In this document: positions 18,449 to 45,299 of the stretch, in pieces | Numbering within the stretch: position 1 is the stretch's first letter | Layout: the number at the start of each line of letters is the position of its first letter | Origin: Vicinamibacterales bacterium | GTDB taxonomy: Bacteria; Acidobacteriota; Vicinamibacteria; Vicinamibacterales; UBA2999 | NCBI GenBank assembly: GCA_035293405.1 | Contig: DATDOE010000062.1 | Coordinates: 7,526-71,525 of the forward strand | Direction of reading: 5' to 3' | DNA: 64,000 nt | Position numbers and translations under genes: made by a program | Notes under the pieces: generated by a model | Databases searched by the model: none | What the model saw: the letters and a program-made list of their open reading frames with translations, nothing else | What the model was told of the DNA's origin: nothing

Positions 18449-18700
18449 GTGGATCCCACCATCAAGGACTTCGAAGCCGCCATCGCGGAGCTCGAGACCG
18501 TCGTCAAGAAGCTCGAGGAAGGCGATCTGCCGCTCGAAGCGTCACTGCAGTTGTACGAGCGCGGCGTGCACCTCTCGCGTTTCTGCCATGCACGGCTCGA
18601 AGAGGCCGAACGCCGCATCGAGATCCTCAATGAGCGCGGCGAGCTCAAGCCCGCACCCGCGACGTTTGCGACTGAGGACGATTCAAAGGTCAAAGGGTAA
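18449..18700 (+). CDS. xseB: Exodeoxyribonuclease VII small subunit
   Basis: FEAAIAELETVVKKLEEGDLPLEASLQLYERG. Confidence 0.95.
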   Translation: MDPTIKDFEAAIAELETVVKKLEEGDLPLEASLQLYERGVHLSRFCHARLEEAERRIEILNERGELKPAPATFATEDDSKVKG

Positions 18701-18717
18701 AGGTCAAAGGTCAAAGG
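18683..18717 (+). repeat. Heptamer tandem array (TCAAAGG)x5
   Basis: TCAAAGG TCAAAGG GTAAAGG TCAAAGG TCAAAGG spanning the xseB stop. Confidence 0.9.
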
Positions 18718-19635: not shown

Positions 19636-19640
19636 GACGT

Positions 19641-19713
19641 GGGGTCAGAACTGGGGTCAGAACTGGGGTCAGAGTCGGGGTCAGAATCGGGGTCAGAGCT
19701 GGGGTCTGACCCC
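19641..19713 (+). repeat. 12-bp tandem repeat GGGGTCAGAnnn x5 ending in palindrome GGGGTCTGACCCC (REP-like)
   Basis: Five units 19641-19700 plus 13-bp near-palindrome 19701-19713. Confidence 0.9.
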
Positions 19714-19722
19714 AATCGCAGA

Positions 19723-20451
19723 ATGCGCGTACGTCTCGATCAACTGCTGCTCGATCGTGGGCTGGTTCCCTCCCGGGAACGCGGGCGGGCGCTCGTGATC
19801 GCGGGACAGGTCAGCGTGGACGGGCACGCCGTGACCAAAGCCGGCACCCCCGTCGAGACGACGGCCGATGTGACGCTGCTCGTCCCGGACCACCCGTATG
19901 TCGGCCGGGGTGGGCTGAAGCTCGCTCACGCGCTGGACACGTTTCACATCTCCGTCGACGGTCGTGAATGCCTCGACATCGGCGCATCCACCGGCGGGTT
20001 CACCGATGTGATGCTGCGGCGCGGCGCCGCGCGTGTCGTAGCCCTCGATGTGGGCCACGGGCAGTTGGACTGGACGCTGCGCAACGACTCGCGCGTCCTC
20101 GTCATCGAACATCTGAACGCGCGGAGCCTGAAGCCAGGCATGCTGCCAACGGCGGTGGACCTCGTCACTATCGACGTGTCGTTCATCTCGCTGGCCCGCA
20201 TCTTTCCGGTCGTCCCGCCGCTGCTTCGTCCCGGCGCCGACATCGTCGCGCTCGTCAAACCGCAATTCGAGGCGGGGCGGGGCGAGGTCCGTAAAGGCGT
20301 GATTCGCGATCCCGCCGTGCACGAGCGCGTCCTCGACGAAGTGACGTCGGCAGGCGCTGAGGTAGGATTGACACGCGTGGCGTCGACGCCCTCACCCGTC
20401 ACTGGACAGAAGGGAAACGTCGAGTTCCTCGTCCACTTCCGTCCGTCATGA
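19723..20451 (+). CDS. tlyA: TlyA family rRNA methyltransferase
   Basis: RLDQLL S4 domain, YVGRGGLKL, LDIGASTGGFTD, DVSFISL, KPQFE. Confidence 0.95.
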   Translation: MRVRLDQLLLDRGLVPSRERGRALVIAGQVSVDGHAVTKAGTPVETTADVTLLVPDHPYVGRGGLKLAHALDTFHISVDGRECLDIGASTGGFTDVMLRRGAARVVALDVGHGQLDWTLRNDSRVLVIEHLNARSLKPGMLPTAVDLVTIDVSFISLARIFPVVPPLLRPGADIVALVKPQFEAGRGEVRKGVIRDPAVHERVLDEVTSAGAEVGLTRVASTPSPVTGQKGNVEFLVHFRPS

Positions 20452-21356
20452 CCCACAACGGCATTGCGCGCGTCGGCATCGTGGCCAAGCGTGGGCTGCT
20501 GGCCGCGGCAGATCCCCTCAATCAGCTGGCCACCTGGCTGCGCGCGCGGACGATCGACGTCGTGTTCGAGACCGACACCGCGGCGCTCGCCCGCACCGAC
20601 GGCGACGCGACAACGTACTCGCGCGAGACTCTTCCCGCCGAGGTCGATCTGATCGTCGTCATGGGGGGCGACGGCACGCTGCTCAGCATGGCCACACGCA
20701 CGGCGCAGGCCGGGCGCGACGTCCCTATCCTCGGCGTGAATTTCGGCAGCCTCGGGTTCCTCACCGAGACACGCATCGACGAGCTCTACACGGTGCTCGA
20801 GTCGGTCCTCAACGGCACCGCGACCTTTGACGATCGGGCGATGCTTGCCGCCGACGCCTATCGCGCCCGCGAGCATTTCGATTCGCGAATCGTGCTGAAC
20901 GACGTGGTCTTCACAAAGGCCGCGCTCTCGCGGATCATCGAGCTCTCGATCTCGGTCAGCAGCGGCCTCGTCACCAAGGTCAAAGCCGACGGCCTGATCA
21001 TCGCCAGCGCGACGGGCTCCACCGCCTACAATCTGGCCGCCGGCGGCCCCATCATTCACCCGCGCGCCGATGCCATCGTCCTCACGCCGATTGCGCCGCA
21101 CACGCTGACCAACCGGCCGATCATCGTCCCCGGCAGCGAAGTAATCGAAGTGCGTCCGCAGTTGCGGGGCAACCTCGACGAAATCTTCGTGACCTACGAC
21201 GGCCAGTTCGGCTACCCACTGCAGGAGGGCGACGTCGTGCGCGTCAGGACGTCGGAGCGCACGCTGCGGCTGGTCAAGGCGCCGGCGCGCAGCTACTTCG
21301 AACTGCTGCGCGAGAAGCTCAAGTGGGGCGAGCGCGGCGGAGACGAGCAGGGCTAG
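20448..21356 (+). CDS. nadK: NAD kinase
   Basis: GGDGTLL, GSLGFL, LND, DGLIIASATGSTAYNLAAGGP. Confidence 0.95.
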   Translation: MTHNGIARVGIVAKRGLLAAADPLNQLATWLRARTIDVVFETDTAALARTDGDATTYSRETLPAEVDLIVVMGGDGTLLSMATRTAQAGRDVPILGVNFGSLGFLTETRIDELYTVLESVLNGTATFDDRAMLAADAYRAREHFDSRIVLNDVVFTKAALSRIIELSISVSSGLVTKVKADGLIIASATGSTAYNLAAGGPIIHPRADAIVLTPIAPHTLTNRPIIVPGSEVIEVRPQLRGNLDEIFVTYDGQFGYPLQEGDVVRVRTSERTLRLVKAPARSYFELLREKLKWGERGGDEQG

Positions 21357-21379
21357 AATCGCTTTCCAAGGAGCACTCG

Positions 21380-22228
21380 ATGACCGTCAAGAGACACGTA
21401 TTCGCGCTCGCGATCCTCGCCGCCATGATGTGTGCGGCGCCGTCGGCACAGCGGCGCGCCGCCGTCACGACGCCGCGCATCTACGCGTTCGAGAACGGCT
21501 CCATCAAGGGACTGGATCCCAAGCTCTTCAACTTCACCCGCGAGGAGCTGAAAGAAGTGGATTTCACCAATACGTCGTACCTCATCGTGCACCCCAAGGG
21601 CACGCTGATGTTCGACTCCGGCGCGGTGCCTGACAGCCACTTCAAAGGTGGCGCACCGGTCACCGAAGGGATCATGTCGGCGACCAAGCCACTCCTGCCG
21701 CAGCTCGCCGCGGCAGGCTATGCGCCGGCGGACATCACGTTCTTCGCGATGTCGCATTACCACTCCGACCACACGGCCAACGCGAATGAGTTCGCCAGGG
21801 CGACCTGGATCGTCCAGAAGGCGGAGCGCGATTACATGTTCGCGGACATGCCACAGGGCATCATCCAGCCGACGCACTACAGCGCGCTCAAGAACGCCAA
21901 GACCAGGATCCTGAACAACGAGGACTTCGACGTCTTCGGCGACGGCACGGTGGTCGTCAAGTCAACGCCCGGCCACACGCCGGGGCATCAAGTGGTGTTC
22001 GTGAAGCTGGCGAAGCGGGGAGGGGTGCTCCTGGCGGGCGATCTCTATCACTACCCCGAGGAGCGCACGACCGGCCGCGTGCCGACGTTCGAGTTCAACG
22101 CCGAGCAGTCCAAAGCATCGCGCGAGAAGGTCGAGGCGTTCATCAAGCAGACCGGCGCACAGCTCTGGATCGAGCACGACATCGCCACCCACGCGACGCT
22201 GCCGAAAGTGCCCGCTTACGTGGAGTAA
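21380..22228 (+). CDS. Secreted N-acyl-homoserine lactonase-family metallo-beta-lactamase
   Basis: SHYHSDH, TPGHTPGHQ, LAGDLYH, WIEHD; signal peptide; AGGAG RBS. Confidence 0.85.
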   Translation: MTVKRHVFALAILAAMMCAAPSAQRRAAVTTPRIYAFENGSIKGLDPKLFNFTREELKEVDFTNTSYLIVHPKGTLMFDSGAVPDSHFKGGAPVTEGIMSATKPLLPQLAAAGYAPADITFFAMSHYHSDHTANANEFARATWIVQKAERDYMFADMPQGIIQPTHYSALKNAKTRILNNEDFDVFGDGTVVVKSTPGHTPGHQVVFVKLAKRGGVLLAGDLYHYPEERTTGRVPTFEFNAEQSKASREKVEAFIKQTGAQLWIEHDIATHATLPKVPAYVE

Positions 22229-22234
22229 TACGAC

Positions 22235-22269
22235 AGGGGGAAGGGGAAAGGGGGAAGGGGGAAGGGGGA
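22235..22269 (+). repeat. Heptamer tandem array (AGGGGGA)x5, left flank of the four-helix-bundle gene
   Basis: AGGGGGA AGGGGAA AGGGGGA AGGGGGA AGGGGGA. Confidence 0.9.
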
Positions 22270-22312
22270 AGAGCCGACCAAGGCTCCAGTCATCCAGTCA
22301 TGAGTTCCGTCC

Positions 22313-22684
22313 CTACCCTCTTGCTCGTCCCAACGAGCCGATCAGGCCGTGCAGCATCCGGCCCACTTCCTCGGCATCCGCAATCAGCATCGACGCTTCG
22401 TCCTCGGTCACAATCTCAACTCTTCTCCCCAACTCGACTTGCGTTTGAAGCTCGTGGCTCGAGCCGGTCGAGTAGCGCAGATGGTGAATGTACTCAGGCG
22501 TGTAGTGGCGGCCGAAACCTTCGGCGATGTTCGATGGAATAGATACACACGACTTGCGTATCTCGTGGCCGAGGACCAACTGGTCGTCGCGACGAAAGCG
22601 GCGCGACATCCTGTAGCACCGTTCCGCGAGGTTCATCGACTTCTGCCAGACGTGAAGCTCGCGGAAGGAACTGATCTTGGTCAT
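22313..22684 (-). CDS. Four-helix-bundle protein (23S rRNA IVP/Avd-like family)
   Basis: SFRELHVWQKSM, IRKSCVSIPSNIAEGFGR, GSSHELQTQV, RMLHGLI. Confidence 0.92.
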   Translation of the reverse strand: MTKISSFRELHVWQKSMNLAERCYRMSRRFRRDDQLVLGHEIRKSCVSIPSNIAEGFGRHYTPEYIHHLRYSTGSSHELQTQVELGRRVEIVTEDEASMLIADAEEVGRMLHGLIGSLGRARG

Positions 22685-22755
22685 GCCGCGATCAATCAGC
22701 AGATCACCTGCCACGCGGAATCACTCGCGTTTGGGCAAGGGTGCAATGAATCAGG

Positions 22756-23826
22756 TCATTTACGTCTTCCCCCTGCCCCCTTCTCCCTTTCCTGCGCGCG
22801 CCGCTGCCGGAAGTATTTGACCTGGTACTCGAGGACGTTGGCGTTGTGCTCCTTCAGCGTCGCCGCGAAGACGTGCGAGCCGTCGTTGCGGCTGACGAAG
22901 TAGAGATGCGGGACGGCGGCCGGGGCGAGCGCGGCTTCGATCGAGGCGCGGCCCGGTGAGGCGATCGGGCCAGGTGGAAGACCGGAGTAGCGATAGGTGT
23001 TGTACGGCGAATCGACGCTCAGGTCTTCCCGCCTGATGTTGCCGTTGTAGCGGCCGGCTTTCATCAGCGCGTAGACCACGGTGGGGTCGGCTTGCATGCC
23101 CATGCCGCGGGTCATGCGGTTGCGGTACACCGCCGACACCAGCGGGCGTTCCTCAGCCTTGGCGGTTTCCTTTTCGACCAGCGACGCAAGCGTCACGACT
23201 TGCCGCGTCGTCAGCGACTGCTCACGCGCGCGCTGTCGCAATGTGTCGTCGTAAATGGCGAGAAACCGTTCCACCATCATCGCCACCAACTGCGATGCGG
23301 GAGCGTGGCGCGACAGGCCATACGTCTCCGGAAAGAGGTATCCCTCGAGGTCGGTCGCCTTCGGGTCGATGTCCTTGGCCAGTGACGCGTCTCCCGCGGC
23401 CTTCACGAAATCCCGCGCGGGACCGAAGCCCCGCGCTTCGTAGACCTTGGCCATCTCGGCGATGGTGAGTCCCTCTGGAAACGTGATGCGATGCGCGTAC
23501 ACATCGCCGGCGGCGATCTTCTCGATGACCGCCAGGGCGCTCATCGGCTGATCGAATCGGTACTCGCCGGCTTTCAACGAGCGCGCGCGTCCCGACCACC
23601 ACAGCGCGGCGCGGAACGTGAGGTCGTCGGACACGACGCCGTGGGAAGCCAGGACGCGTCGAATGTCGGCCGAGCCCGCCCCCTGCGCGATGTCCACGAA
23701 CTGCTCGCTCTCGGGGTAGCCCTTGTACGGCTCGTGAATGCGACGCCACAGATCGGTGGCGTAGAGGCCGCCGACGGCGGCGAGACCAAGAGCGATGAGC
23801 GCGGCGAGGAGCAGGAGCTTCCGCAT
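22756..23826 (-). CDS. mltG: Endolytic transglycosylase MltG
   Basis: LKAGEY, TFPEG, LEGYLFPETY, ASLVEKET, MQADPTVVY, SPYNTY..GLPPGPI. Confidence 0.96.
   Translation of the reverse strand: MRKLLLLAALIALGLAAVGGLYATDLWRRIHEPYKGYPESEQFVDIAQGAGSADIRRVLASHGVVSDDLTFRAALWWSGRARSLKAGEYRFDQPMSALAVIEKIAAGDVYAHRITFPEGLTIAEMAKVYEARGFGPARDFVKAAGDASLAKDIDPKATDLEGYLFPETYGLSRHAPASQLVAMMVERFLAIYDDTLRQRAREQSLTTRQVVTLASLVEKETAKAEERPLVSAVYRNRMTRGMGMQADPTVVYALMKAGRYNGNIRREDLSVDSPYNTYRYSGLPPGPIASPGRASIEAALAPAAVPHLYFVSRNDGSHVFAATLKEHNANVLEYQVKYFRQRRAQEREKGAGGRRK
22766..22794 (-). repeat. Degenerate heptamer array complementary to 22235-22269, within the mltG 3' end
   Basis: Plus strand CT TCCCCCT GCCCCCT TCTCCCT TTCCTG. 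Confidence 0.7.
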
Positions 23827-24306: not shown

Positions 24307-25434
24307 GTGGCGCTGATCTGTCTGACGCTGGCCGCCGCCGCGCTGGGTGCGCAGGAGCCTGCCGCCTCGTCCCCTGAATCACAGGCGCGGCGTGTGACCG
24401 AGCGCATTCGCGCCCTGCAACGGGAGGCGGAGCGCCTCGCCGGCGAATCGCGCAACGTGGTCGTTGATCTCCGCAAGCTCGAAATCGACCGCGAGCTGAA
24501 GACCGAACAGGCCAAGCAAGCCGCCACCGCGTCGGCGGAGGCCGAGCGCACGCTGCAGATGACGACCGATCGACTGTCCAGGCTGGAGCTGCAGCGACTG
24601 GCGCAGCTCCCGGACATGAAGGTGCAGCTCGTCGACATCTACAAGCGCGGACGGAGCGGGTATGCACGACTGCTCTTCGGCGCAGGCGACTTGCGTGAGT
24701 TTGCGCGGGCGACGCGGGCGGTGTCGGCGCTGGCGAGCATCAACCAGAAGCGGCTGACCGAGCACCGGCGCACGCTGGACGCGCTTCGCGTGGAGCGCGC
24801 CGCGTTCGCGCAGAAAGCCCACGAGCTTCAGACGCGTGAGGCCGAAGCCAAACGCGCGCGCGCCGATGCGGAACGCGCCATCGCCGCACGCGCGGCGATG
24901 ATCGCGCAGATTGATTCGCGGCGCGACCTGACCGCGCAGTACGTGGGCGAGCTGCAGGTGGCCTACGACAAGATCCAGCTGCAGATCGCCGCGTCCGCCG
25001 AAGGACGGTCGCCCGATGCGGTCGCACTGCCCCTGCTGCCGTTTCGAGGCGCCCTCGACTGGCCCATCGGCGGCGGCCGGCTCAGCAGCCGTTTCGGACA
25101 GGTCGCCGGCCGTCTGGGCGGGAGCGCCGTCAAGAACGGCATCGAGATGACGGCCCCCGAGGAGGCGTCTGTCCGTGCCGTCCATAGCGGGACGGTGGCC
25201 TTCGCCGACGCCTACACCGGCTTTGGCACCCTTGTGATCCTGGACCACGGCAGCAACAACTACTCGCTGTACGGCTATCTCGGCTCGGCCGGGGTGCAGA
25301 TGGGTGACGTTGTGGAAACCGGGGCCGAGGTGGGCCGGGTGGGCCTTTCACCGGCCGGGCCGCCGGCGCTCTTTTTCGAGATGCGGATCGACGGCAAATC
25401 GGTCGATCCCGTACAATGGCTCAAGCCTCGATAA
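24307..25434 (+). CDS. envC: EnvC-like murein hydrolase activator (coiled coil + M23 domain)
   Basis: Long coiled coil, LDWPIGG, NGIEM, LVILDHG, LFFEMR..VDPVQWL; start approximate. Confidence 0.85.
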   Translation: MALICLTLAAAALGAQEPAASSPESQARRVTERIRALQREAERLAGESRNVVVDLRKLEIDRELKTEQAKQAATASAEAERTLQMTTDRLSRLELQRLAQLPDMKVQLVDIYKRGRSGYARLLFGAGDLREFARATRAVSALASINQKRLTEHRRTLDALRVERAAFAQKAHELQTREAEAKRARADAERAIAARAAMIAQIDSRRDLTAQYVGELQVAYDKIQLQIAASAEGRSPDAVALPLLPFRGALDWPIGGGRLSSRFGQVAGRLGGSAVKNGIEMTAPEEASVRAVHSGTVAFADAYTGFGTLVILDHGSNNYSLYGYLGSAGVQMGDVVETGAEVGRVGLSPAGPPALFFEMRIDGKSVDPVQWLKPR

Positions 25435-25492
25435 CCCCCGCTCCCACACCCGACTCCATGGTTGGGACTTGTGGAGTTGGTAGTTGGGAGTC
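25433..25492. repeat. Degenerate inverted heptamer arrays (ACTCCCA / TTGGGAG)
   Basis: Left ..CTCCCAC ACCCGAC TCCA; right TTGGGAC TTGTGGAG TTGGTAG TTGGGAG. Confidence 0.6.
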
Positions 25493-25498
25493 GTTTTC

Positions 25499-26662
25499 AT
25501 GACATCTCGTACACGCCTGTGGGTTCTCGCCGTCTCGACGCCGGTCATCGTCTTCGCGCTCGTGGGCGGCTACCTCGGCCAGGCCATGGCGAAGGACGAC
25601 ACGTACCAGCACCTCCGTGTCTTCGATGATGTCGTCTCCCATGTCGTCAATAACTACGTCGAGGAAGTCGACCTGAAACAGGCCATGCGCGGGGCGATGC
25701 GGGGCCTCGCCGATGCCCTCGACCCGGACAGCGCCTATCTGACGCCGGACATGGTCAAGACCTTGGAAGGCAACACGAGCGCCGGCCCGGCGGACGTGGG
25801 CCTGGAGATCACCAGGCAGTACTACCTGCGCGTCGTCTCGGCGCGCGACGGATCTCCGGCCGCGAAGGCGGGACTCCGGACTGGTGATTTCATCCGCGCC
25901 ATCGACAATCGGCCCACTCGCGACATGTCGGTCTACGAGGGCGCGCGCCTGCTTCGTGGCGCGGTTGGCAGCAAGGTCGCGCTTCTGGTGATCCGGGGCA
26001 ACGCCGCCGATCCGCACGAGCTGTCGCTCGTCCGTGAGCGCGTGGCCGGAACCGACCTGACGTCGCGGATGGCCGACGCCTCCACGGGCTATATCCGCAT
26101 GATCGAGTTCAACAAGGAGTCGCCGGCCCACATCAAGCAGGCCGTCGATGCATTGGCCAGGACGGGGGCCACCCGCTTCATCGTGGATCTGCGCGGCACG
26201 GCGCGAGGCGATCTTGACGACGGCATTGCGACGGCGCGCGTGTTCGTGCGCAGCGGCACGCTGGCGGTGCGGCAGACGAAGACGCAGAAGGACGTGATTC
26301 CGGCGCAGGTCAGCGACGGCGCGATCACCGCCCCCGTCGAGCTGTTGATCGATCAGGGCACCGCGGCCGCGGCCGAATTGTTCGCGTCGGCGCTCGGCGG
26401 CAACGCTCGCGCGGAGCTGGTGGGCGAGCGCACGCTGGGCCGCGCCGCGCGCCAGCAGCTGGTGAAGCTACCCGATGGCAGCGGGCTCTGGTTGTCGTCG
26501 GTCCGCTACCTGACACCGAAGAGCGAAGGCATTCACGAGCGCGGACTCGGACCTGACGTCGAAGTCGATCAGCCCGACGTCGAGTTCGGCGCGGCGCCTC
26601 CCGCGAAGGATGCCACGCTCGACAAAGCCCTCGAACGACTCGCCGAGAAGAAGGCCGCGTAG
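25499..26662 (+). CDS. ctpA: S41 carboxyl-terminal protease-like protein (PDZ)
   Basis: LDPDSAYL, GSPAAKAGL PDZ, DLRG, TAAAAELFA, GERTLG; the usual catalytic Ser/Lys positions read Ala/Arg, so it may be inactive. Confidence 0.8.
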   Translation: MTSRTRLWVLAVSTPVIVFALVGGYLGQAMAKDDTYQHLRVFDDVVSHVVNNYVEEVDLKQAMRGAMRGLADALDPDSAYLTPDMVKTLEGNTSAGPADVGLEITRQYYLRVVSARDGSPAAKAGLRTGDFIRAIDNRPTRDMSVYEGARLLRGAVGSKVALLVIRGNAADPHELSLVRERVAGTDLTSRMADASTGYIRMIEFNKESPAHIKQAVDALARTGATRFIVDLRGTARGDLDDGIATARVFVRSGTLAVRQTKTQKDVIPAQVSDGAITAPVELLIDQGTAAAAELFASALGGNARAELVGERTLGRAARQQLVKLPDGSGLWLSSVRYLTPKSEGIHERGLGPDVEVDQPDVEFGAAPPAKDATLDKALERLAEKKAA

Positions 26663-27139: not shown

Positions 27140-27216
27140 AGGCGCGTAGCTCAGTTGGTTAGAGCGCCTCCCTGACACGGAGGAGGTCAGTGGTTCGAGT
27201 CCACCCGCGCCTACCA
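27140..27216 (+). tRNA. tRNA-Val(GAC)
   Basis: AGGCGCG/CGCGCCT acceptor stem, TAGCTCAGTTGGTTAGAGC D-arm, CCTCC-CTGACAC-GGAGG anticodon arm, GGTTCGAGTCC, encoded CCA. Confidence 0.97.
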
Positions 27217-30203: not shown

Positions 30204-30207
30204 ACGG

Positions 30208-30286
30208 TGTAATGCAAAATGCAAAATGCGAAATTCAAGAACGACCTTGAATTGTTTGCATTTTGAATTTTGAATTTTGAATTACA
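30208..30286. repeat. Inverted heptamer arrays (AATGCAA)x4 / (TTGAATT)x5 forming a hairpin
   Basis: TGT AATGCAA AATGCAA AATGCGA AATTCAA ... TTGCATT TTGAATT TTGAATT TTGAATT ACA. Confidence 0.9.
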
Positions 30287-30298
30287 GGGATTCTTCAG

Positions 30299-30676
30299 AT
30301 GCCGAGAGTAAAACGAGGAACAGTCCGCCGCGCCAAACGCAAGAAGCTCCTGGCGCGTGCGAAAGGCTTCTTCCAGACCAAGAGCAAGCTGTATCGCGCC
30401 GCGAAAGAGTCGGTCGACACGGCGCTCAAATACGCCTACGTCGGTCGGAAGAACAAGAAGCGCGAGTATCGCCGGCTGTGGGTCGTCCGCATCAACGCGG
30501 CGGCGCGCGAGAACGGGCTCACGTATTCGCAGCTGATGCGCGGCCTCAAGGCCGCCAACAACGCGCTCGATCGCAAGATGCTCGCGGACATGGCTGTCCG
30601 GCAGCCGGCGGCATTCAGCAAAGTGGCCGAGCAGGCGAAGGCCGCGCTCCCCGCCCAATCGGCCGCTTCCGCCTGA
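30299..30676 (+). CDS. rplT: 50S ribosomal protein L20
   Basis: [30 protein letters not shown]. Confidence 0.97.
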
Positions 30677-30759
30677 TCAATGCACAATGCTCAATGCCCA
30701 ATGCCCAATGACCAACCCGATTGGCATTGAGCAATGGGCCTTCTGCATTGAGCATTGAT
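30676..30759. repeat. Inverted heptamer arrays (CAATGCC)x5 / (GGCATTG)x5 forming a hairpin
   Basis: CAATGCA CAATGCT CAATGCC CAATGCC CAATGAC ... GGCATTG AGCAATG GGCCTTC TGCATTG AGCATTG. Confidence 0.9.
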
Positions 30760-30761
30760 TC

Positions 30762-31871
30762 ATGTCTGACTCCCCTCTCAATCACGCGGCTATCGACGCA
30801 CTGCGCGCGCTTTACGAGACGCGCCTGGCTGCCGTCGACACCGTCGCCGCGCTCAAGGGCCTCCACGACGCATTTCTGAGCCGCAAGTCAGGGCTGGTGA
30901 CCGAGCAGATGAAGACGCTCGGCTCGCTACCGCCAGACGCCAGGCGAGCGGTCGGCGGCCTGCTCAACGCACTCAAGACCGAGATCGAAACCTCGATCGC
31001 CGAGAAGCACGCCGCCCTGGCAGCCTCGCGGCCGCTGGCCGGCGCCGTCGACGTCACGCTACCCGGACGCCAGTTGCCCGGTGGACGCATTCACCCGTTG
31101 ATGCGGGTTCGCCAGCAGGTCGAGGACATCTTCACCCACATGGGCTACGAGATCCTCGAAGGGCCGGAGGTCGAGGACGACTTCCACAACTTCGAGGCGC
31201 TGAACATGCCGCCCGACCATCCCGCGCGCGACATGCAGGACACGCTCTATCTGAGCGTGCCCATCGTCGGCGGCACGTGGGGCGCGCACCGGTCGCCCCG
31301 GCCCGGCCACGTGCCCGAGGCGCAAGTCCGCGCCGCCACGTTGCTGCGCACGCATACGTCGGCGATGCAGATTCGGTACATGAAGACGTTCGCGCCGCCG
31401 GTGCGCATCATCGTGCCCGGCCGCGTCTACCGGCGTGACAACCTCGACCTGACCCACACGCCGATGTTCCAGCAGTTCGAAGGCCTGGTCGTGGGCGAAG
31501 GCATCACGATGGCCGACCTCAAGGGCACCTTCGAAGCGATGCTCACCGCACTCTTCGGCAATGTGAACGTGCGGCTGCGTCCGAGCTTCTTCCCCTACAC
31601 CGAGCCGAGCGCCGAGATCGATATCTCGTGTCAGAGCTGCGGCGGCTCCGGCTGCAGCGTGTGCAAGCACACCGGCTGGCTCGAGATTCTGGGCAGCGGC
31701 ATGGTCCACCCCGCGGTCTTCGAGGCGGTCGGCTACGACCCCGAGAACGTCACCGGATTCGCGTTCGGCATGGGCATGGAACGCGTGGCGATGCTGAAGT
31801 ACGGCGTCGACGACATCCGTCTGTTCTACGAGAACGACCTGCGCTTTCTCGAGCAGTTCCCGTCGCTATGA
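30762..31871 (+). CDS. pheS: Phenylalanine--tRNA ligase alpha subunit
   Basis: HPARDMQDT, LLRTHTS, RPSFFPYTEPS, GFAFGMGMER. Confidence 0.98.
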   Translation: MSDSPLNHAAIDALRALYETRLAAVDTVAALKGLHDAFLSRKSGLVTEQMKTLGSLPPDARRAVGGLLNALKTEIETSIAEKHAALAASRPLAGAVDVTLPGRQLPGGRIHPLMRVRQQVEDIFTHMGYEILEGPEVEDDFHNFEALNMPPDHPARDMQDTLYLSVPIVGGTWGAHRSPRPGHVPEAQVRAATLLRTHTSAMQIRYMKTFAPPVRIIVPGRVYRRDNLDLTHTPMFQQFEGLVVGEGITMADLKGTFEAMLTALFGNVNVRLRPSFFPYTEPSAEIDISCQSCGGSGCSVCKHTGWLEILGSGMVHPAVFEAVGYDPENVTGFAFGMGMERVAMLKYGVDDIRLFYENDLRFLEQFPSL

Positions 31872-34635: not shown

Positions 34636-34820
34636 GAGCTCCTGCTTTGCTCGTGATGGTTTTCGGAGGCTCGTCTGAGCCAACGTTAATCCTAAGTGAG
34701 CCGCGAGGTTGCGCGTTGTGCATGCCTCTGTTTCGAGGAAGCCTGAAGCGCAACTAACAACGGCGGCTCCACCTGCTTTCGCAGGTTCACTCGACCTCCC
34801 CACACGGCAAAGCGGGGCTT
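34636..34820 (+). ncRNA. ssrS: 6S RNA
   Basis: About 185 nt downstream of zapA (conserved synteny); closing stem GAGCTCCTGCTTTGC/GCAAAGCGGGGCTT, inner GAGCCG/CGGCTC pairing, U-rich tail. Confidence 0.85.
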
Positions 34821-34863
34821 TTCTTTTTCGGCCCGCTGCCTTTCCCCTCTGGCCGGTTCCTCA

Positions 34864-41015: not shown

Positions 41016-41025
41016 TTCTCCCGCG

Positions 41026-41110
41026 TTGGGTGTTGGCTCTCGGCTCTGGGCTCTGGGCTTTAGGCTTTGGGAGTTGGCATCAGGCGCGGATCGGGAGTTG
41101 GGAGTTGAGT
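41026..41110 (+). repeat. Heptamer array with drifting unit (GGGCTCT to GGGCTTT to GGGAGTT)
   Basis: TGGCTCT CGGCTCT GGGCTCT GGGCTTT AGGCTTT GGGAGTT ... GGGAGTT GGGAGTT. Confidence 0.8.
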
Positions 41111-41844
41111 TAGTCCTTCCTCGCCACCACCAGCAACGAGCTGCCAATCGGCATGGGGATGCGCCGCGCGAGAGCGGCTTCTCCGCTCAGGAGTGCGGTC
41201 AGCAGCGCGTTCACCGGCGCGCTCGGCACCGCGATGTCCGCCGCCGCGTCGTGGGCCCTGAATGGCCGCGACAACCGCTGCACGAAGCGCACGGCGAGCA
41301 TCAGCGGAAACAGCGACGCGAAGACGAAAGCGACCCGCTCGGCGCGAAGACCGGCCGCTTCCACCAGGCGCCGCGCCATCACCGGCGTATAGCGCCTTCG
41401 CTCCTGCCAGGCCTCTGAATGGTCGCCTCGGAGGACCTCGAGCGCCGCCATTGTGACCACGACCGCCCCGCCGGGTTTCACGATACGCGCCATCTCACGA
41501 AGCGCGGCGAGATCGCCATCAATGCACTGCAGCACGTCGAAGGACGTCGCGACGTCGAACACGTCAGACGCGAAAGGGATCTGTGTGACGTCGGCTCGGA
41601 GCACGGTCCACCCGGCCGCACGCGCCCGCGCGAGGCCACCTTCGGCCACGTCAAAGCCCAGCGCCTTTCCATGAGCTCGAAGCAGCCCGATGTTGTGGCC
41701 GTTACCGCATCCGCAGTCGACCAGCATGAGCCGGTCGCGCCCACCGGCGAGATCGTGTAGCACGGGCGCGACGAATTTTCGGAAACCGCGGAACCAGAAG
41801 TGGGCCGCCTCTGCTCGACCCGTCAACTCGAGCAGGTCGTCCAT
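41110..41844 (-). CDS. Class I SAM-dependent methyltransferase
   Basis: HFWF, VDCGCGNG, FDVATSFDVL, RIVKPGG. Confidence 0.9.
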   Translation of the reverse strand: MDDLLELTGRAEAAHFWFRGFRKFVAPVLHDLAGGRDRLMLVDCGCGNGHNIGLLRAHGKALGFDVAEGGLARARAAGWTVLRADVTQIPFASDVFDVATSFDVLQCIDGDLAALREMARIVKPGGAVVVTMAALEVLRGDHSEAWQERRRYTPVMARRLVEAAGLRAERVAFVFASLFPLMLAVRFVQRLSRPFRAHDAAADIAVPSAPVNALLTALLSGEAALARRIPMPIGSSLLVVARKD

Positions 41845-44070: not shown

Positions 44071-45299
44071 TGAAGACTCCCGATACTCCCGGCCGACCGA
44101 TGGTCCGCTGACAAGGAGGGTGACCCATCGGTCGCCGGCCTCGATGTCATGAGCCCTGCCGCTTGACGAACCGTGATTGCCTCGAGGACTCGCCCTGAGT
44201 GCCTGGCAAGCACATCAAGGAGCGAAGGCCAATCTGGCCTACTCGGATTATCGGCAATCGGGCCGTCGGCATACAGCACAGCCACGACCGTGCCACCTAC
44301 GGCGACCGGCCAGGACACGGCGTGGCGATGGCCGTTTCCGCCGGCGAATGACGGCAATGACTGACCCTCGTCGCCCCAAGACGTCACCCCTTGACCCGAG
44401 CGAACGACCTCGGCCATAGGCCCGGCTTCGTCGAGCCCCATATCGAGCCTCGCCGCGCCGGACTCGGCCTCAAAGCCCACGATGCGGTACTCCCGAAGCC
44501 TATCGCCTTTGACGAGAAACACGACCGCCCGGCCGGCTTCCCGGCCAGCACTCCGGACCAGACTATCGAGCACCTCACCAAGCGTCGAGGCCTCGTCCAG
44601 AACTCGGATTGCGTCCGGCAAACGCGCGGCCTGCGCCAGCCGTTCGTCGGCGCGTCGCACCGCATCGGTCAACTGGCTCAATTCGCGCCGGACGATTTCC
44701 AGCTCATGCTCCGCGGTATCGATTTCAAGGCCCGACGTCTCGATTTCGCGCCGTGCGGCCTCGATGTCGCGCTGCGCGGTTTCCTTCTCTTGCTCGAGGG
44801 TCTCGAGCCGATGCTGGGCGCTCTCGAGTTCCCGCTTCGCGTTGTCGAGTTCGCGGTTCGCGTTGTCTGCTTCGCGCTTCGTGTTGTCCGCTTCTCGCGT
44901 GGCGGTTTCAACCTCACGCTTCGCGTTGTCTGCATCACGCTTCGCGTTGTCTATTCCGCGCTGCGCGTCCTCTTCTTGACGCGTCGCGTTGTCACGGGCC
45001 TCATCGAGCAGGCGTTGAAGCGCAGCTACTTCGGCCGCCGCGCTCGCCTGTCGCTCTTCGACGTCGCGTGCCGCCGCCTCCCGAACCTCGGCGAGCCGCT
45101 CTTCCGCCTCTCGACGTGCGTCGGCGGTGGCGCTTTCGGCAGCCTCCGCAGCAATTCGAGTACCGGCGTCGTTTGCCGCGCGCACGAGACCCTCCTGGAA
45201 GGTGCCGAGCTCGGCCTCCAGATTGCCTCGAATCGAATCGAGTGCGCGGTTCAGTGTGTCGCGGATGTGATCGTCGAGAGCAGACACGGCTGCTCGCAT
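44067..45299 (-). CDS. Coiled-coil protein with C-terminal GAF-like domain
   Basis: ADNAKRE-type heptads; PVAVGGTVVAVLYAD GAF-like motif. Confidence 0.7.
   Translation of the reverse strand: MRAAVSALDDHIRDTLNRALDSIRGNLEAELGTFQEGLVRAANDAGTRIAAEAAESATADARREAEERLAEVREAAARDVEERQASAAAEVAALQRLLDEARDNATRQEEDAQRGIDNAKRDADNAKREVETATREADNTKREADNANRELDNAKRELESAQHRLETLEQEKETAQRDIEAARREIETSGLEIDTAEHELEIVRRELSQLTDAVRRADERLAQAARLPDAIRVLDEASTLGEVLDSLVRSAGREAGRAVVFLVKGDRLREYRIVGFEAESGAARLDMGLDEAGPMAEVVRSGQGVTSWGDEGQSLPSFAGGNGHRHAVSWPVAVGGTVVAVLYADGPIADNPSRPDWPSLLDVLARHSGRVLEAITVRQAAGLMTSRPATDGSPSLSADHRSAGSIGSLQ

Follow-up and report, generated by a model that had tools for sequence, protein, structure and literature searches.

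A PF05635 four-helix-bundle gene between inverted heptamer arrays in Vicinamibacterales: a probable copy of an accessory DNA cassette

Why should a small bacterial gene lie between two complementary arrays of a 7-nt repeat, at the junction of two protein-coding genes, and why does the same period return at other junctions nearby? The question is raised by one locus in the 64,000-nucleotide stretch of Vicinamibacterales DNA analyzed here (the window). Arm 1, on the forward strand, occupies 22235-22271 and holds 5.3 copies of AGGGGGA (93% matches in TRF), the gene lies on the reverse strand at 22313-22684, and arm 2 occupies 22766-22797 of the forward strand, with 3.4 copies of a CTTCCCC/TCCCCCT-type unit that TRF reports at 22766-22789 and that the degenerate copy CCCTTTCC prolongs. 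Arm 2 was delimited by TRF, the letters themselves, the stem of the predicted fold and comparison with the empty site of genome G004. Read on the sense strand of the gene, arm 2 is the G-rich 5' arm and arm 1 the C-rich 3' arm. The enclosure of the gene by inverted 7-nt arrays had been described in a first-pass annotation of this DNA, and TRF, the letters and Pfam confirm it. Our reading is that the feature is probably one copy of an accessory DNA cassette, made of an arm, a gene and an inverted arm, and working as proposed below.

The gene belongs to the four-helix-bundle family PF05635 and is called here the IVP gene. Its match to the 23S_rRNA_IVP profile (E 5.1e-31) scores 107.5 bits, over a cut-off of 33.8, and covers positions 1-106 of the 106 in the profile; the only other Pfam match is a weak one to bAvd. 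The longest ORF, the one listed for the gene, spans 22313-22714 and begins with a GTG at 22714, but alignment with five related cassettes (six in all) indicates that the start is likely the ATG at 22684, which gives a protein of 123 aa. By sequence similarity its solved relatives are 2gsc (E 1.1e-15) and 2rld (E 3.1e-4), crystal entries with five chains each. E88 is the sole invariant residue of the protein, Q51 and N62 are nearly so, and no known nuclease or recombinase motif was found in it. The earlier suggestion that the transcript could fold with the ORF as the loop agrees with the predicted structure of the 581-nt RNA of the gene strand, in which the arms pair in both the minimum-energy and the centroid predictions, with a z-score of -3.13 and none of 100 shuffles folding equally well. 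A consensus scan of 22100-22900 found neither sigma-70 promoters nor intrinsic terminators, consensus sequences being uninformative for the host organism.

The cassette is located between two convergent host genes. The left one codes for a protein of the metallo-beta-lactamase fold (21323-22228, forward strand; PF00753, E 1.2e-17), has orthologues in relatives, and has its stop 6 nt before arm 1; the right one is mltG, of the YceG family (22756-23826, reverse strand; PF02618, E 1.1e-84). The mltG reading frame terminates within the cassette, with its stop at 22756-22758, arm 2 doubles as coding sequence for the final residues, and the C-terminus of the protein departs from the G004 version where the arm begins. 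The first-pass annotation needs correction for the right arm, which overlaps the last mltG codons. Relatives have or lack the cassette as a whole at the orthologous site. In G004 only 5 bp separate the two stop codons and the arrays are absent, in G012 the spacer is about 130 bp long and holds no IVP gene, and G013 has a different IVP gene with GGTAGCC-type arms. These filled and empty alleles bear out the idea of a discrete cassette that carries no transposase, and Pfam detected none inside the window copy; no enzyme for its movement was identified. Target-site duplication was not visible in the one filled/empty comparison made (G004), in which the genomes are only about 80% identical.

The association between gene and arms is not peculiar to this junction. 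Inverted repeats were found around all 11 IVP (PF05635) loci of the genome, with heptamer arrays at 7, each built from a different unit, and with repeats of period 9, about 23 or 8, or without periodicity, at the remaining 4. Conversely, 12 inverted heptamer pairs have 300-600 nt between their arms; an IVP gene is found in 7 of them and a weak relic in one. The long loops on contigs C103 and C75 gave matches only at E ~1, and it was their motifs and their place between two arms, rather than the score, that led us to name both relics; no IVP remnant was found in the long loops at C110 20319-20692, C110 126427-126963 and C115 3786-4299. In all nine cassettes and relics that were folded the arms are predicted to pair, over 21-58 bp. 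Of 98 near-full-length IVP genes in the genus, 58 lie between inverted arrays and a further 15 have flanking arrays, on one side or on both, without a match as an inverted pair, and the stem score exceeds the 99th percentile of shifted controls at 76 of 89 loci. The bracketed fraction is 43 of 71 for IVP genes of other phyla (16 different taxon labels) and 0 of 242 for shifted control windows, in a sample that, being drawn with a 6-sequence alignment, is biased towards relatives of the window gene; a replicate with HMM-defined coordinates gave 46 of 79. One copy bracketed on both sides is located on plasmid1 of Calothrix brevissima NIES-22. The predicted enrichment of heptamer arrays next to four-helix-bundle paralogues is thus found at all three scales. 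In these cassettes each arm repeats a short unit in tandem, usually one of 7 nt and most often in about 4-4.5 copies (~30 nt).

Our results also show that arms and gene behave as one travelling unit. Cassettes L056 and L080, in one genome, are 94.5% identical, share the AGGGGGC unit and have unrelated flanks, and the window gene is 83.7% identical to that of L075, again with a common unit (AAGGGGG) and unrelated flanks. Since related cassettes with the same unit stand at unrelated sites both within and between genomes, the arms must travel with the gene. Over pairs with unrelated flanks the mean distance between units was 0 at 80% protein identity or more, 2.0 at 70-80%, 2.8 at 50-60% and 3.3 below 40%; the value observed at 70% identity or more was reached by none of 2000 label shuffles, and the rise with protein divergence was seen again across phyla. 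The dN/dS ratios, 0.03-0.25 in all 12 computable pairs, indicate that the protein is under purifying selection. The repeat unit changes slowly, and on both arms: its consensus differs at 0-1 of 7 positions in 6 of the 7 bracketed pairs in which dS exceeds 1 or is saturated. It had been proposed that the period rather than the sequence is the recognized signal, a proposal that is not supported, as the unit is conserved despite saturated synonymous sites and co-diverges with the protein, and as the arms of some IVP genes have a period of 8, 9 or about 23. A fixed polarity with the G-rich arm first was considered as a property of gene orientation and rejected; it is a property of the palindrome, independent of gene direction.

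Heptamer arrays are far more numerous than IVP genes. The genome-wide scan of periods that had been suggested gave a clear outcome, with 594 arrays of at least 3.5 copies for period 7 and 103, 41 and 96 for periods 6, 8 and 9, respectively. The commonest array length is 4-4.5 units (268 of 1223 arrays; ~30 nt), whereas arrays of period 6, 8 and 9 become steadily rarer as copy number rises. Among pairs less than 150 nt apart, 202 are inverted and 17 direct. Called intergenic spacers hold 638 of 904 arrays, with 113 more at the 5' ends, uncertain in position, of genes called as longest ORFs, and 213 of 657 begin between -10 and +4 nt of a gene 3' end as judged from crude gene calls, in keeping with the stop-codon location noted earlier. 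Apart from the cassette arms there are 886 arrays, and eight of the nine distinct units of this genome's own cassettes each match at least two of these exactly. The median number of exact free-array matches was 9.5 for 10 rows of own units (one unit being listed twice) and 0 for 52 foreign cassette units (p 0.001). Some abundant units match only cassettes of congeners (TGGTTCG with 65 exact matches, GGGACTC with 60, AATGCAA with 57, CGGGATT with 41 and GTAGCCG with 34), and AACTCCC, with 58 arrays, matches no cassette among those sampled in the genus. Members of a hairpin family have common arms with sharp ends (for example GTAAT...ATTAC, with about four units per arm) and loops unrelated in length and sequence.

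In anatomy the cassette matches the intervening sequences of 23S rRNA that carry an ORF, except that it stands at a junction of protein genes. The element in helix 45 of Coxiella burnetii, as it is described in the passages of PMC4990558 devoted to it, has terminal inverted repeats that form a 28-bp stem, with an S23p ORF in its loop; GACAGAT heptamers in tandem, whose number varies, lie upstream of this ORF, and RNase III cleaves the stem in vitro at the start of the first repeat; Leptospira is cited there as a further case. Common to the rRNA elements and the cassettes are the PF05635/S23p ORF in the loop of a terminal-inverted-repeat stem, a size of about 430-560 nt, tandem heptamers in the stem region whose copy number varies between strains, and a sporadic distribution, which in the part of the literature consulted is read as horizontal transfer. 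Unlike them, the window cassette is located between protein-coding genes (Lactamase_B-fold and YceG), Rfam finding no rRNA in the window, and cassette arms are long regular arrays, with 11 copies in the genome, each with its own repeat. Moreover, the cassette protein is maintained by purifying selection, whereas the same passages of PMC4990558 argue that the Coxiella protein is decaying. Location of an IVP gene within the genome's own 23S rRNA gene was considered and dropped, as Rfam was empty at the four IVP loci whose arms are not heptamer arrays, one of them near a contig end. Carriage by phages was not supported either, with no tblastn match in phages.

By analogy with the rRNA elements, transcription of a cassette would bring its arms together in a stem of about 30 bp, which would be a substrate of RNase III; cutting would free the IVP message and could allow gene junctions to tolerate the insertion. 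The gene-less arrays may be non-autonomous or decayed relatives of the cassette. The putative role of the protein that we consider most likely is binding of its own repeat arms. Selection at the RNA level on the sense strand was not seen: G-U-type stem mismatches numbered 198 in the sense and 171 in the antisense orientation (36 against 32 cassettes, p 0.28), and duplex energies did not differ between the strands (33 against 25, p 0.38). Transcription together with a host operon is not the rule. Flanks could be called for 27 of the 58 bracketed cassettes, 16 being between convergent and 11 between tandem genes, and in the latter the IVP gene has the same direction as its neighbours in 4 and the opposite one in 7.

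Other explanations account for parts of these observations. Avd, the accessory protein of diversity-generating retroelements (DGRs), works with nucleic acid and a reverse transcriptase, and has a homologous four-helix-bundle fold. That the IVP protein is such a protein is barely conceivable: the match to PF22296 (bAvd, E 1.8e-6) reaches 28.8 bits, below the cut-off of 40, neither a reverse transcriptase nor a template/variable repeat is present near the window gene, for which the DGR reading was rejected, and the search for a trans-acting reverse transcriptase that had been recommended found none near any IVP gene, the single RVT_1 match of the genome being on contig C93, which has no IVP locus. 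DGR reverse transcriptases are nonetheless reported to have PF05635 as their most frequent neighbouring family, in the portion of PMC10053308 that deals with them. The inverted arms could instead make the segment an invertible DNA switch for IVP expression or for read-through into the neighbours, and the gene is indeed reversed in three pairs of cassettes with homologous flanks (L091/L095, L089/L094 and L073/L079). However, recombination between long inverted repeats of any kind is expected to invert the segment as a side effect, no recombinase gene was identified in or beside the cassettes examined, and contigs of four DNA runs show no strand-changing joint at the window cassette, weak evidence coming from contigs only, with 22337-22670 uncovered in runs X2-X4; we regard a switch as very unlikely. 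The hairpins may also have existed beforehand, through polymerase slippage or some other process, with IVP genes as separate small mobile genes that landed in their loops and arms that belong to the site. The 1223 arrays and 202 short-loop pairs set against 11 IVP genes, and the different units found at one junction in different species, would agree with this, as does the slippage to which the sections of PMC4679880 and PMC4692102 on the subject ascribe the bacterial heptamer excess. It is very unlikely given that related IVP genes at unrelated loci keep an identical or near-identical unit, that G004 lacks any hairpin at its empty site, that arm length is peaked and not geometric, and that short-range pairs are overwhelmingly inverted.

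A reading that we consider doubtful is one like the REPIN/RAYT systems, in which an IVP paralogue would recognize the unit that flanks it and would maintain or disperse gene-less hairpins in trans, the cassette being the master and the arrays its dependants. In the published pattern of like kind, as given in the text of PMC3116915 on RAYT genes and their own flanking REPINs, a single-copy gene is flanked by inverted repeats of a family that is dispersed as intergenic gene-less hairpins, every paralogue goes with a repeat family of its own, and the two diverge in parallel. Several of our results point the same way, namely the over-matching of own cassette units among free arrays, the co-divergence of unit and protein at unrelated loci, the conservation of the unit where synonymous sites are saturated, the hairpin families with common sharp-ended arms and unrelated loops, and the turnover of gene-less hairpins at a junction without an IVP gene. 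IVP is, in contrast, a small four-helix bundle with a single invariant residue and without a known nuclease or recombinase motif, whereas RAYT is an IS200/IS605-like HUH tyrosine transposase; the cassette repeats are tandem 7-nt arrays and not 16-20-nt palindromes, and the loops of members of a hairpin family are unrelated. Besides, five abundant families match cassettes only in other genomes and AACTCCC none of those sampled, co-inheritance together with selection for a stem could be enough to account for the co-divergence, and related genomes are non-independent samples. We therefore put forward only tentatively that IVP proteins are sequence-specific partners of repeat-built hairpins, each paralogue binding its own 7-nt unit, perhaps with every subunit of a pentamer taking one unit, as would suit arms of about 4-5 units, and thereby maintaining, copying or protecting a gene-less hairpin family. 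If true, this would amount to a symbiosis like that of REPINs and RAYTs run by a non-enzymatic four-helix-bundle protein, and would explain both the bacterial heptamer excess and the origin of ORF-bearing rRNA intervening sequences.

The accessory cassette that we favour brings together two decades-old puzzles, the over-representation of heptamers in bacteria and the role of the 23S rRNA intervening-sequence protein family, which are coupled here physically and evolutionarily, with the gene within a heptamer hairpin, a unit that co-diverges with the protein and the same units spread across intergenic DNA. Cyanobacterial heptanucleotides, the GGGAATC repeats of Xanthomonas and the TAACTGA repeats of Beggiatoaceae are likewise described as intergenic tandem repeats of about four units, sometimes in inverted pairs, over-represented in relation to other periods and variable between close relatives; unlike the present work, the passages of PMC4692102 and PMC4679880 that describe them draw no connection with PF05635. 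That connection is our main result, and no paper linking PF05635 genes with heptamer arrays was found in the literature. PF05635 would gain a concrete candidate ligand in its own arms, heptamer repeats a candidate origin, and rRNA intervening sequences would be recast as one landing place of a far more general cassette. These modules alter gene ends, as in the C-terminus of mltG, occupy ribosomal-protein operons and mark hot spots of variation between species.

Five other junctions of the window had been listed with arrays of the same period (18683, 25433, 30208, 30676 and 41026), three of them as inverted pairs without a gene, and TRF finds all five to be real. Their units had been called unrelated, which does not hold genome-wide, as they are members of recurrent families and most match IVP cassettes elsewhere in this genome. 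The rpmI-rplT spacer has gene-less arrays of AATGCAA (x4, 30211-30238) and TTTGAAT (x4.1, 30255-30283) that form one hairpin at 30211-30283 on the forward strand (fold of 30204-30292, z -3.17), with a unit common to the IVP cassette of contig C133. Over 26 measured congener spacers this junction has at least 7 different units and an IVP gene in none, because of which the gene-less arrays are not simply decayed cassettes. A second hairpin lies between rplT and pheS (30678-30758, forward strand), with CAATGCC x5.4 at 30678-30715 and ATTGAGC x5.7 at 30720-30758; it folds with a z-score of -7.19 (30674-30762), shares its unit with the IVP cassette of contig C138 and is kept in 11 of 28 measured congener spacers. 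The third, at 25439-25495 on the forward strand between M23 and S41 peptidase genes, is of the AACTCCC/GGGAGTT family, with a TRF array of GTTGGGA x4.3 at 25461-25491 (fold of 25430-25500, z -2.65); one depth-2 record from the DNA runs has 24 other letters in place of 25435-25498, too weak to be taken as an empty allele. The single array (TCAAAGG)x5 at 18683-18717 (forward strand), between a small ORF whose stop is within the array and a polyprenyl synthetase gene, has no structure (z -0.69), and its unit is one substitution away from that of the degenerate cassette of C103. Between convergent genes at 41035-41107 (forward strand), GGCTCTG x5.3 (41035-41071) is followed by GGGAGTT x2.1 (41093-41107); the GGCTCTG unit is of the same family as the IVP cassette of contig C99, and the two arrays fold (z -2.38) via G-U pairs, on the forward strand only.

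The minus-strand ORF at the centre of the window cassette matched the whole PF05635 (23S_rRNA_IVP) profile, with an E value of 5.1e-31 and 107.5 bits (cut-off 33.8), and alignment with five related cassettes placed its start codon at ATG 22684. The gene lies between (AGGGGGA)x5.3 at 22235-22271 and a complementary arm, (CTTCCCC)x3.4, at 22766-22789, both read in the sequence and recovered as tandem-repeat calls. The two arms were paired in the fold of the 581-nt gene-strand RNA (z -3.13), with none of 100 shuffles folding as well, which corroborates the first-pass description of a four-helix-bundle gene between inverted 7-nt arrays. In the clade of the window gene, a short inverted sequence that is not part of the repeat (GGGCTGTC / GACAGCCC) prolongs the stem beyond the arrays. 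The cassette separates two convergent genes, a metallo-beta-lactamase-fold gene on its left (21323-22228, plus strand) and mltG/YceG on its right (22756-23826, minus strand). The mltG reading frame enters the right-hand arm, and its C-terminal residues therefore come from the repeat; the cassette arm supplies about 11 final residues (22756-22800), the stop lies inside the cassette, and the mltG tail differs in G004, another genome of the genus. No Rfam match to rRNA was obtained in the window, where the sole Rfam matches were a 6S/SsrS RNA (34636-34822, plus strand, 80.7 bits) and a tRNA (27140-27213, plus strand).

This architecture is not particular to the window. The window genome carries 11 PF05635 loci, a number with which a genus profile run on all six frames agrees, and in seven of them (contigs C99, C133, C89, C33, C138, C65 and C62, the contig of the window) inverted heptamer arrays flank the gene, with a unit that is different at every locus. 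The remaining four also lie between inverted repeats, with 89-nt arms of period 9 on C64, arms of period ~23 on C56, arms of period 8 on C108 and 48-nt arms without a period at the second locus on C133. When inverted heptamer pairs holding 300-600 nt were collected from this genome (n=12), seven contained an IVP gene and one a weak relic, and the arms were paired in all nine cassettes and relics that were folded (21-58 bp). Two ORFs other than IVP genes were seen inside inverted heptamer pairs, at C133 55130-55574 and C108 92231-92521; judged from the translations, one has a cytochrome-c-like CxxCH motif and the other is a small membrane protein, and they might be host genes that happen to have an array on either side. 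A further pair, TGGTAGC / GCTACGA (C61 5493-5698), holds a 160-nt perfect short tandem repeat that reads KVCKVC... in one frame.

The family was present in 36 of 36 genus genomes searched, G009 included. Our genus sample, which leaves out G009, comprised 98 near-full-length IVP genes of 35 genomes, taken from the best 30 loci and the next 60 listed places, with ~60 more listed places and 106 unlisted matches outside it. Inverted heptamer arrays bracketed 58 of the 98, and another 15 had one or two flanking arrays that did not form an inverted pair. These cassettes used 45 distinct units around a loop of median 514 nt (364-623). When stems of any period were scored, 76 of 89 genus loci ranked above the 99th percentile of the shifted controls, arm periods other than 7 being clade-specific minorities. 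Among the best 80 of 590 cross-phylum hits to a peptide pattern built from relatives of the window gene, 43 of the 71 loci with enough flank were bracketed and 20 more were one-sided, compared with 0 of 242 shifted windows, and a replicate with HMM-defined coordinates gave 46 of 79. Heptamer arrays are thus strongly enriched beside paralogues of the window gene, as the first-pass annotation had expected. Bracketed loci fell under 16 taxon labels, including Cyanobacteria, Bacteroidota, Planctomycetota, Chloroflexota, Clostridia and proteobacterial classes. Sixteen plasmid records held a relative, 15 of them cyanobacterial, and Calothrix brevissima NIES-22 plasmid1 has a full bracket (AGGGTGT x4.3 / CTACACC x4.3); a search for relatives in phages gave no match. 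Plasmids gamma and alpha of Nostoc sp. PCC 7120 have one four-helix-bundle protein accession in common, adjoining transposase genes, with a heptamer array on the downstream side only, a one-unit difference between the copies and different upstream sequence.

The cassette is gained and lost as a unit. At the orthologous lactamase-fold gene/mltG junction, the stop codons are only 5 bp apart in G004, where no array is present, the spacer of G012 is ~130 bp long without an IVP gene, and G013 has another IVP gene with GGTAGCC-type arms, so that filled alleles (the window and G013) and an empty one (G004) both exist, as had been proposed. The arms also travel with the gene, close IVP relatives having identical or near-identical units even between unrelated flanks. 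Two loci of one genome, L056 and L080, were 94.5% identical and had the unit AGGGGGC in both with unrelated flanks, and the window gene and L075, a locus at 83.7% identity, likewise had one unit (AAGGGGG in both) between flanks that are unrelated. When all bracketed pairs at unrelated flanks were compared, the mean distance between units rose from 0 at protein identities of at least 80% to 2.0 at 70-80%, 2.15 at 60-70%, 2.8 at 50-60%, 3.1 at 40-50% and 3.3 below 40%, none of 2000 label shuffles reached the value observed at identities of at least 70%, and the cross-phylum distance was 1.77 at identities of at least 60% against ~3.0, all of these figures being descriptive rather than probabilities because relatives are not independent. 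At orthologous sites, unit drift took the form of single substitutions on both arms, as in AAGCAGG and AATCAGG at 96.8% protein identity. Gene direction was reversed in three pairs with homologous flanks, which would be the expected outcome of recombination between inverted arms.

Protein and unit are both constrained. The dN/dS ratio was 0.03-0.25 in all 12 computable IVP pairs, with three more pairs saturated, and the IVP protein is therefore functional here. In six of seven bracketed pairs with synonymous divergence above 1 or saturated, the unit consensus differed at only 0-1 of 7 positions, a divergence close to the non-synonymous rate; this conservation would follow from selection for the stem, from specific recognition, or from both. 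The first-read arm was G-rich and the second C-rich in 49 of the 58 cassettes from the genus and in 42 of the 45 from the cross-phylum set. Since the structure is a palindrome, this polarity is the same on both strands and independent of gene direction. It was weaker in the gene-less hairpins of the window genome (118 vs 70, with 14 ties), where it was uniform within hairpin families, the large AACTCCC family being C-first.

The window genome (7.58 Mb, 65% G+C, 139 contigs; the window is C62:7526-71525) has heptamer arrays throughout. With at least 3.5 copies, 594 arrays had period 7 and 103, 41 and 96 had periods 6, 8 and 9, which disposes of the concern that other periods might be equally common. 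The units are not arbitrary, as the 691 arrays with at least 3 copies comprised 122 canonical units, ~25 of them recurrent (AACTCCC 58, AACCACG 52, AACCAAG 50, ACTCGGG 50 and AAAATGC 46, for example). Pairs less than 150 nt apart among 1223 period-7 arrays (score at least 30) were inverted in 202 cases and direct in 17. Copy number peaked sharply at 4-4.5 units (~30 nt; 268 arrays), while periods 6, 8 and 9 fell steadily, and array length is therefore constrained. Crude gene calls (5160 genes; 77% coding, an underestimate) placed 638 of 904 arrays in intergenic spacers (384 between tandem genes, 162 between convergent and 92 between divergent ones). The arrays of the window had been said to start at or within a stop-codon region; across the genome, by the same gene calls, 213 of the 657 arrays with a gene 3' end within 400 nt began -10 to +4 nt from it, and the nearness could be explained by short original spacers without targeting.

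Heptamer arrays were indeed present at all five other junctions of the window, and three of them fold as gene-less hairpins (z -2.65, -3.17 and -7.19). The units of these junctions had been regarded as unrelated, but this is not supported: CAATGCC, AATGCAA/TTTGAAT and GGCTCTG recur in IVP cassettes on C138, C133 and C99, respectively, and TCAAAGG is one substitution from the unit of a relic on C103. Among 886 free arrays, the units of the genome's own cassettes (10 rows, 9 distinct units) had a median of 9.5 exact matches, against 0 for 52 foreign units from other genomes (p 0.001). Five abundant units matched cassettes in other genus genomes only, and no cassette with AACTCCC was found in the genus sample. 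Spacers were surveyed in 29 genus genomes (G009 left out), each being measurable in 26-28, and an IVP gene was never found in either rplT-pheS or rpmI-rplT. The former held a conserved CAATGC-type hairpin in 11 genomes, other units in 5 and at most 41 nt in 12; the latter was 0-20 nt without arrays in 7 and had at least 7 different units in the remaining genomes. In G013 the rpmI-rplT spacer (273 nt) stacks two families, a long (CTGGTAG)-type array and then AATGCAA-type units. Members of a hairpin family have sharp-ended common arms of about four units each and unrelated loops of 4-100 nt. Gene-less modules therefore turn over on their own, and cassette decay, suggested by the relics on C103 and C75, cannot be their whole origin.

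How the cassette works may be approached through the Coxiella 23S element. In the available text of PMC4990558, a 28-bp stem of this element closes a loop that contains an S23p ORF, tandem heptameric repeats of variable number adjoin the ORF, and RNase III cuts the element in vitro inside the stem, at the first repeat. A PF05635/S23p-type ORF in a loop and heptamer repeats are thus common to that element, as described there, and to the window cassette, and by homology of design the stem of paired arms is predicted to be processed by RNase III. No sense-strand bias was found in G-U-compatible stem mismatches (198 vs 171) or in duplex energy. The 27 cassettes with callable flanks included 16 between convergent genes and none between divergent genes, and in tandem contexts the IVP gene was antisense to its neighbours in 7 and sense in 4. 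This lack of strand bias, the mostly convergent flanks and an antisense orientation as frequent as the sense one argue against a purely RNA-level logic. A REPIN/RAYT-like system, in which the IVP protein would act both on the arms around its gene and on the copies dispersed through the genome, would fit the co-divergence of unit and protein as well as the units common to cassettes and gene-less arrays, though judged from sequence we hold it to be rather unlikely. A DGR role was rejected, since the single reverse transcriptase of the window genome lies on another contig.

Heptamers and simple repeats have reportedly been treated before, in early cyanobacterial STRR work and in a 2007 simple-repeat survey. 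Apart from the rRNA element of Coxiella, a link between the PF05635 family and heptamer arrays does not appear in the available text of PMC4679880, PMC4692102, PMC10053308, PMC10910872, PMC11637426, PMC4990558 or PMC3116915, though it may already be in print elsewhere.

Other repeats were also seen in the window. At 41020-41112, GGCTCTG and GGGAGTT arrays, which have different units, can pair through G-U wobble on plus-strand RNA only (z -2.38). A period-12 array, (TGGGGTCAGAAC)x5.6, occupies 19640-19706, right where the ORF 19639-20451 begins, and a nested repeat of period 21/63/84 lies at 44829-44993, its 21-nt unit (three times 7) being present in up to 7.9 copies.
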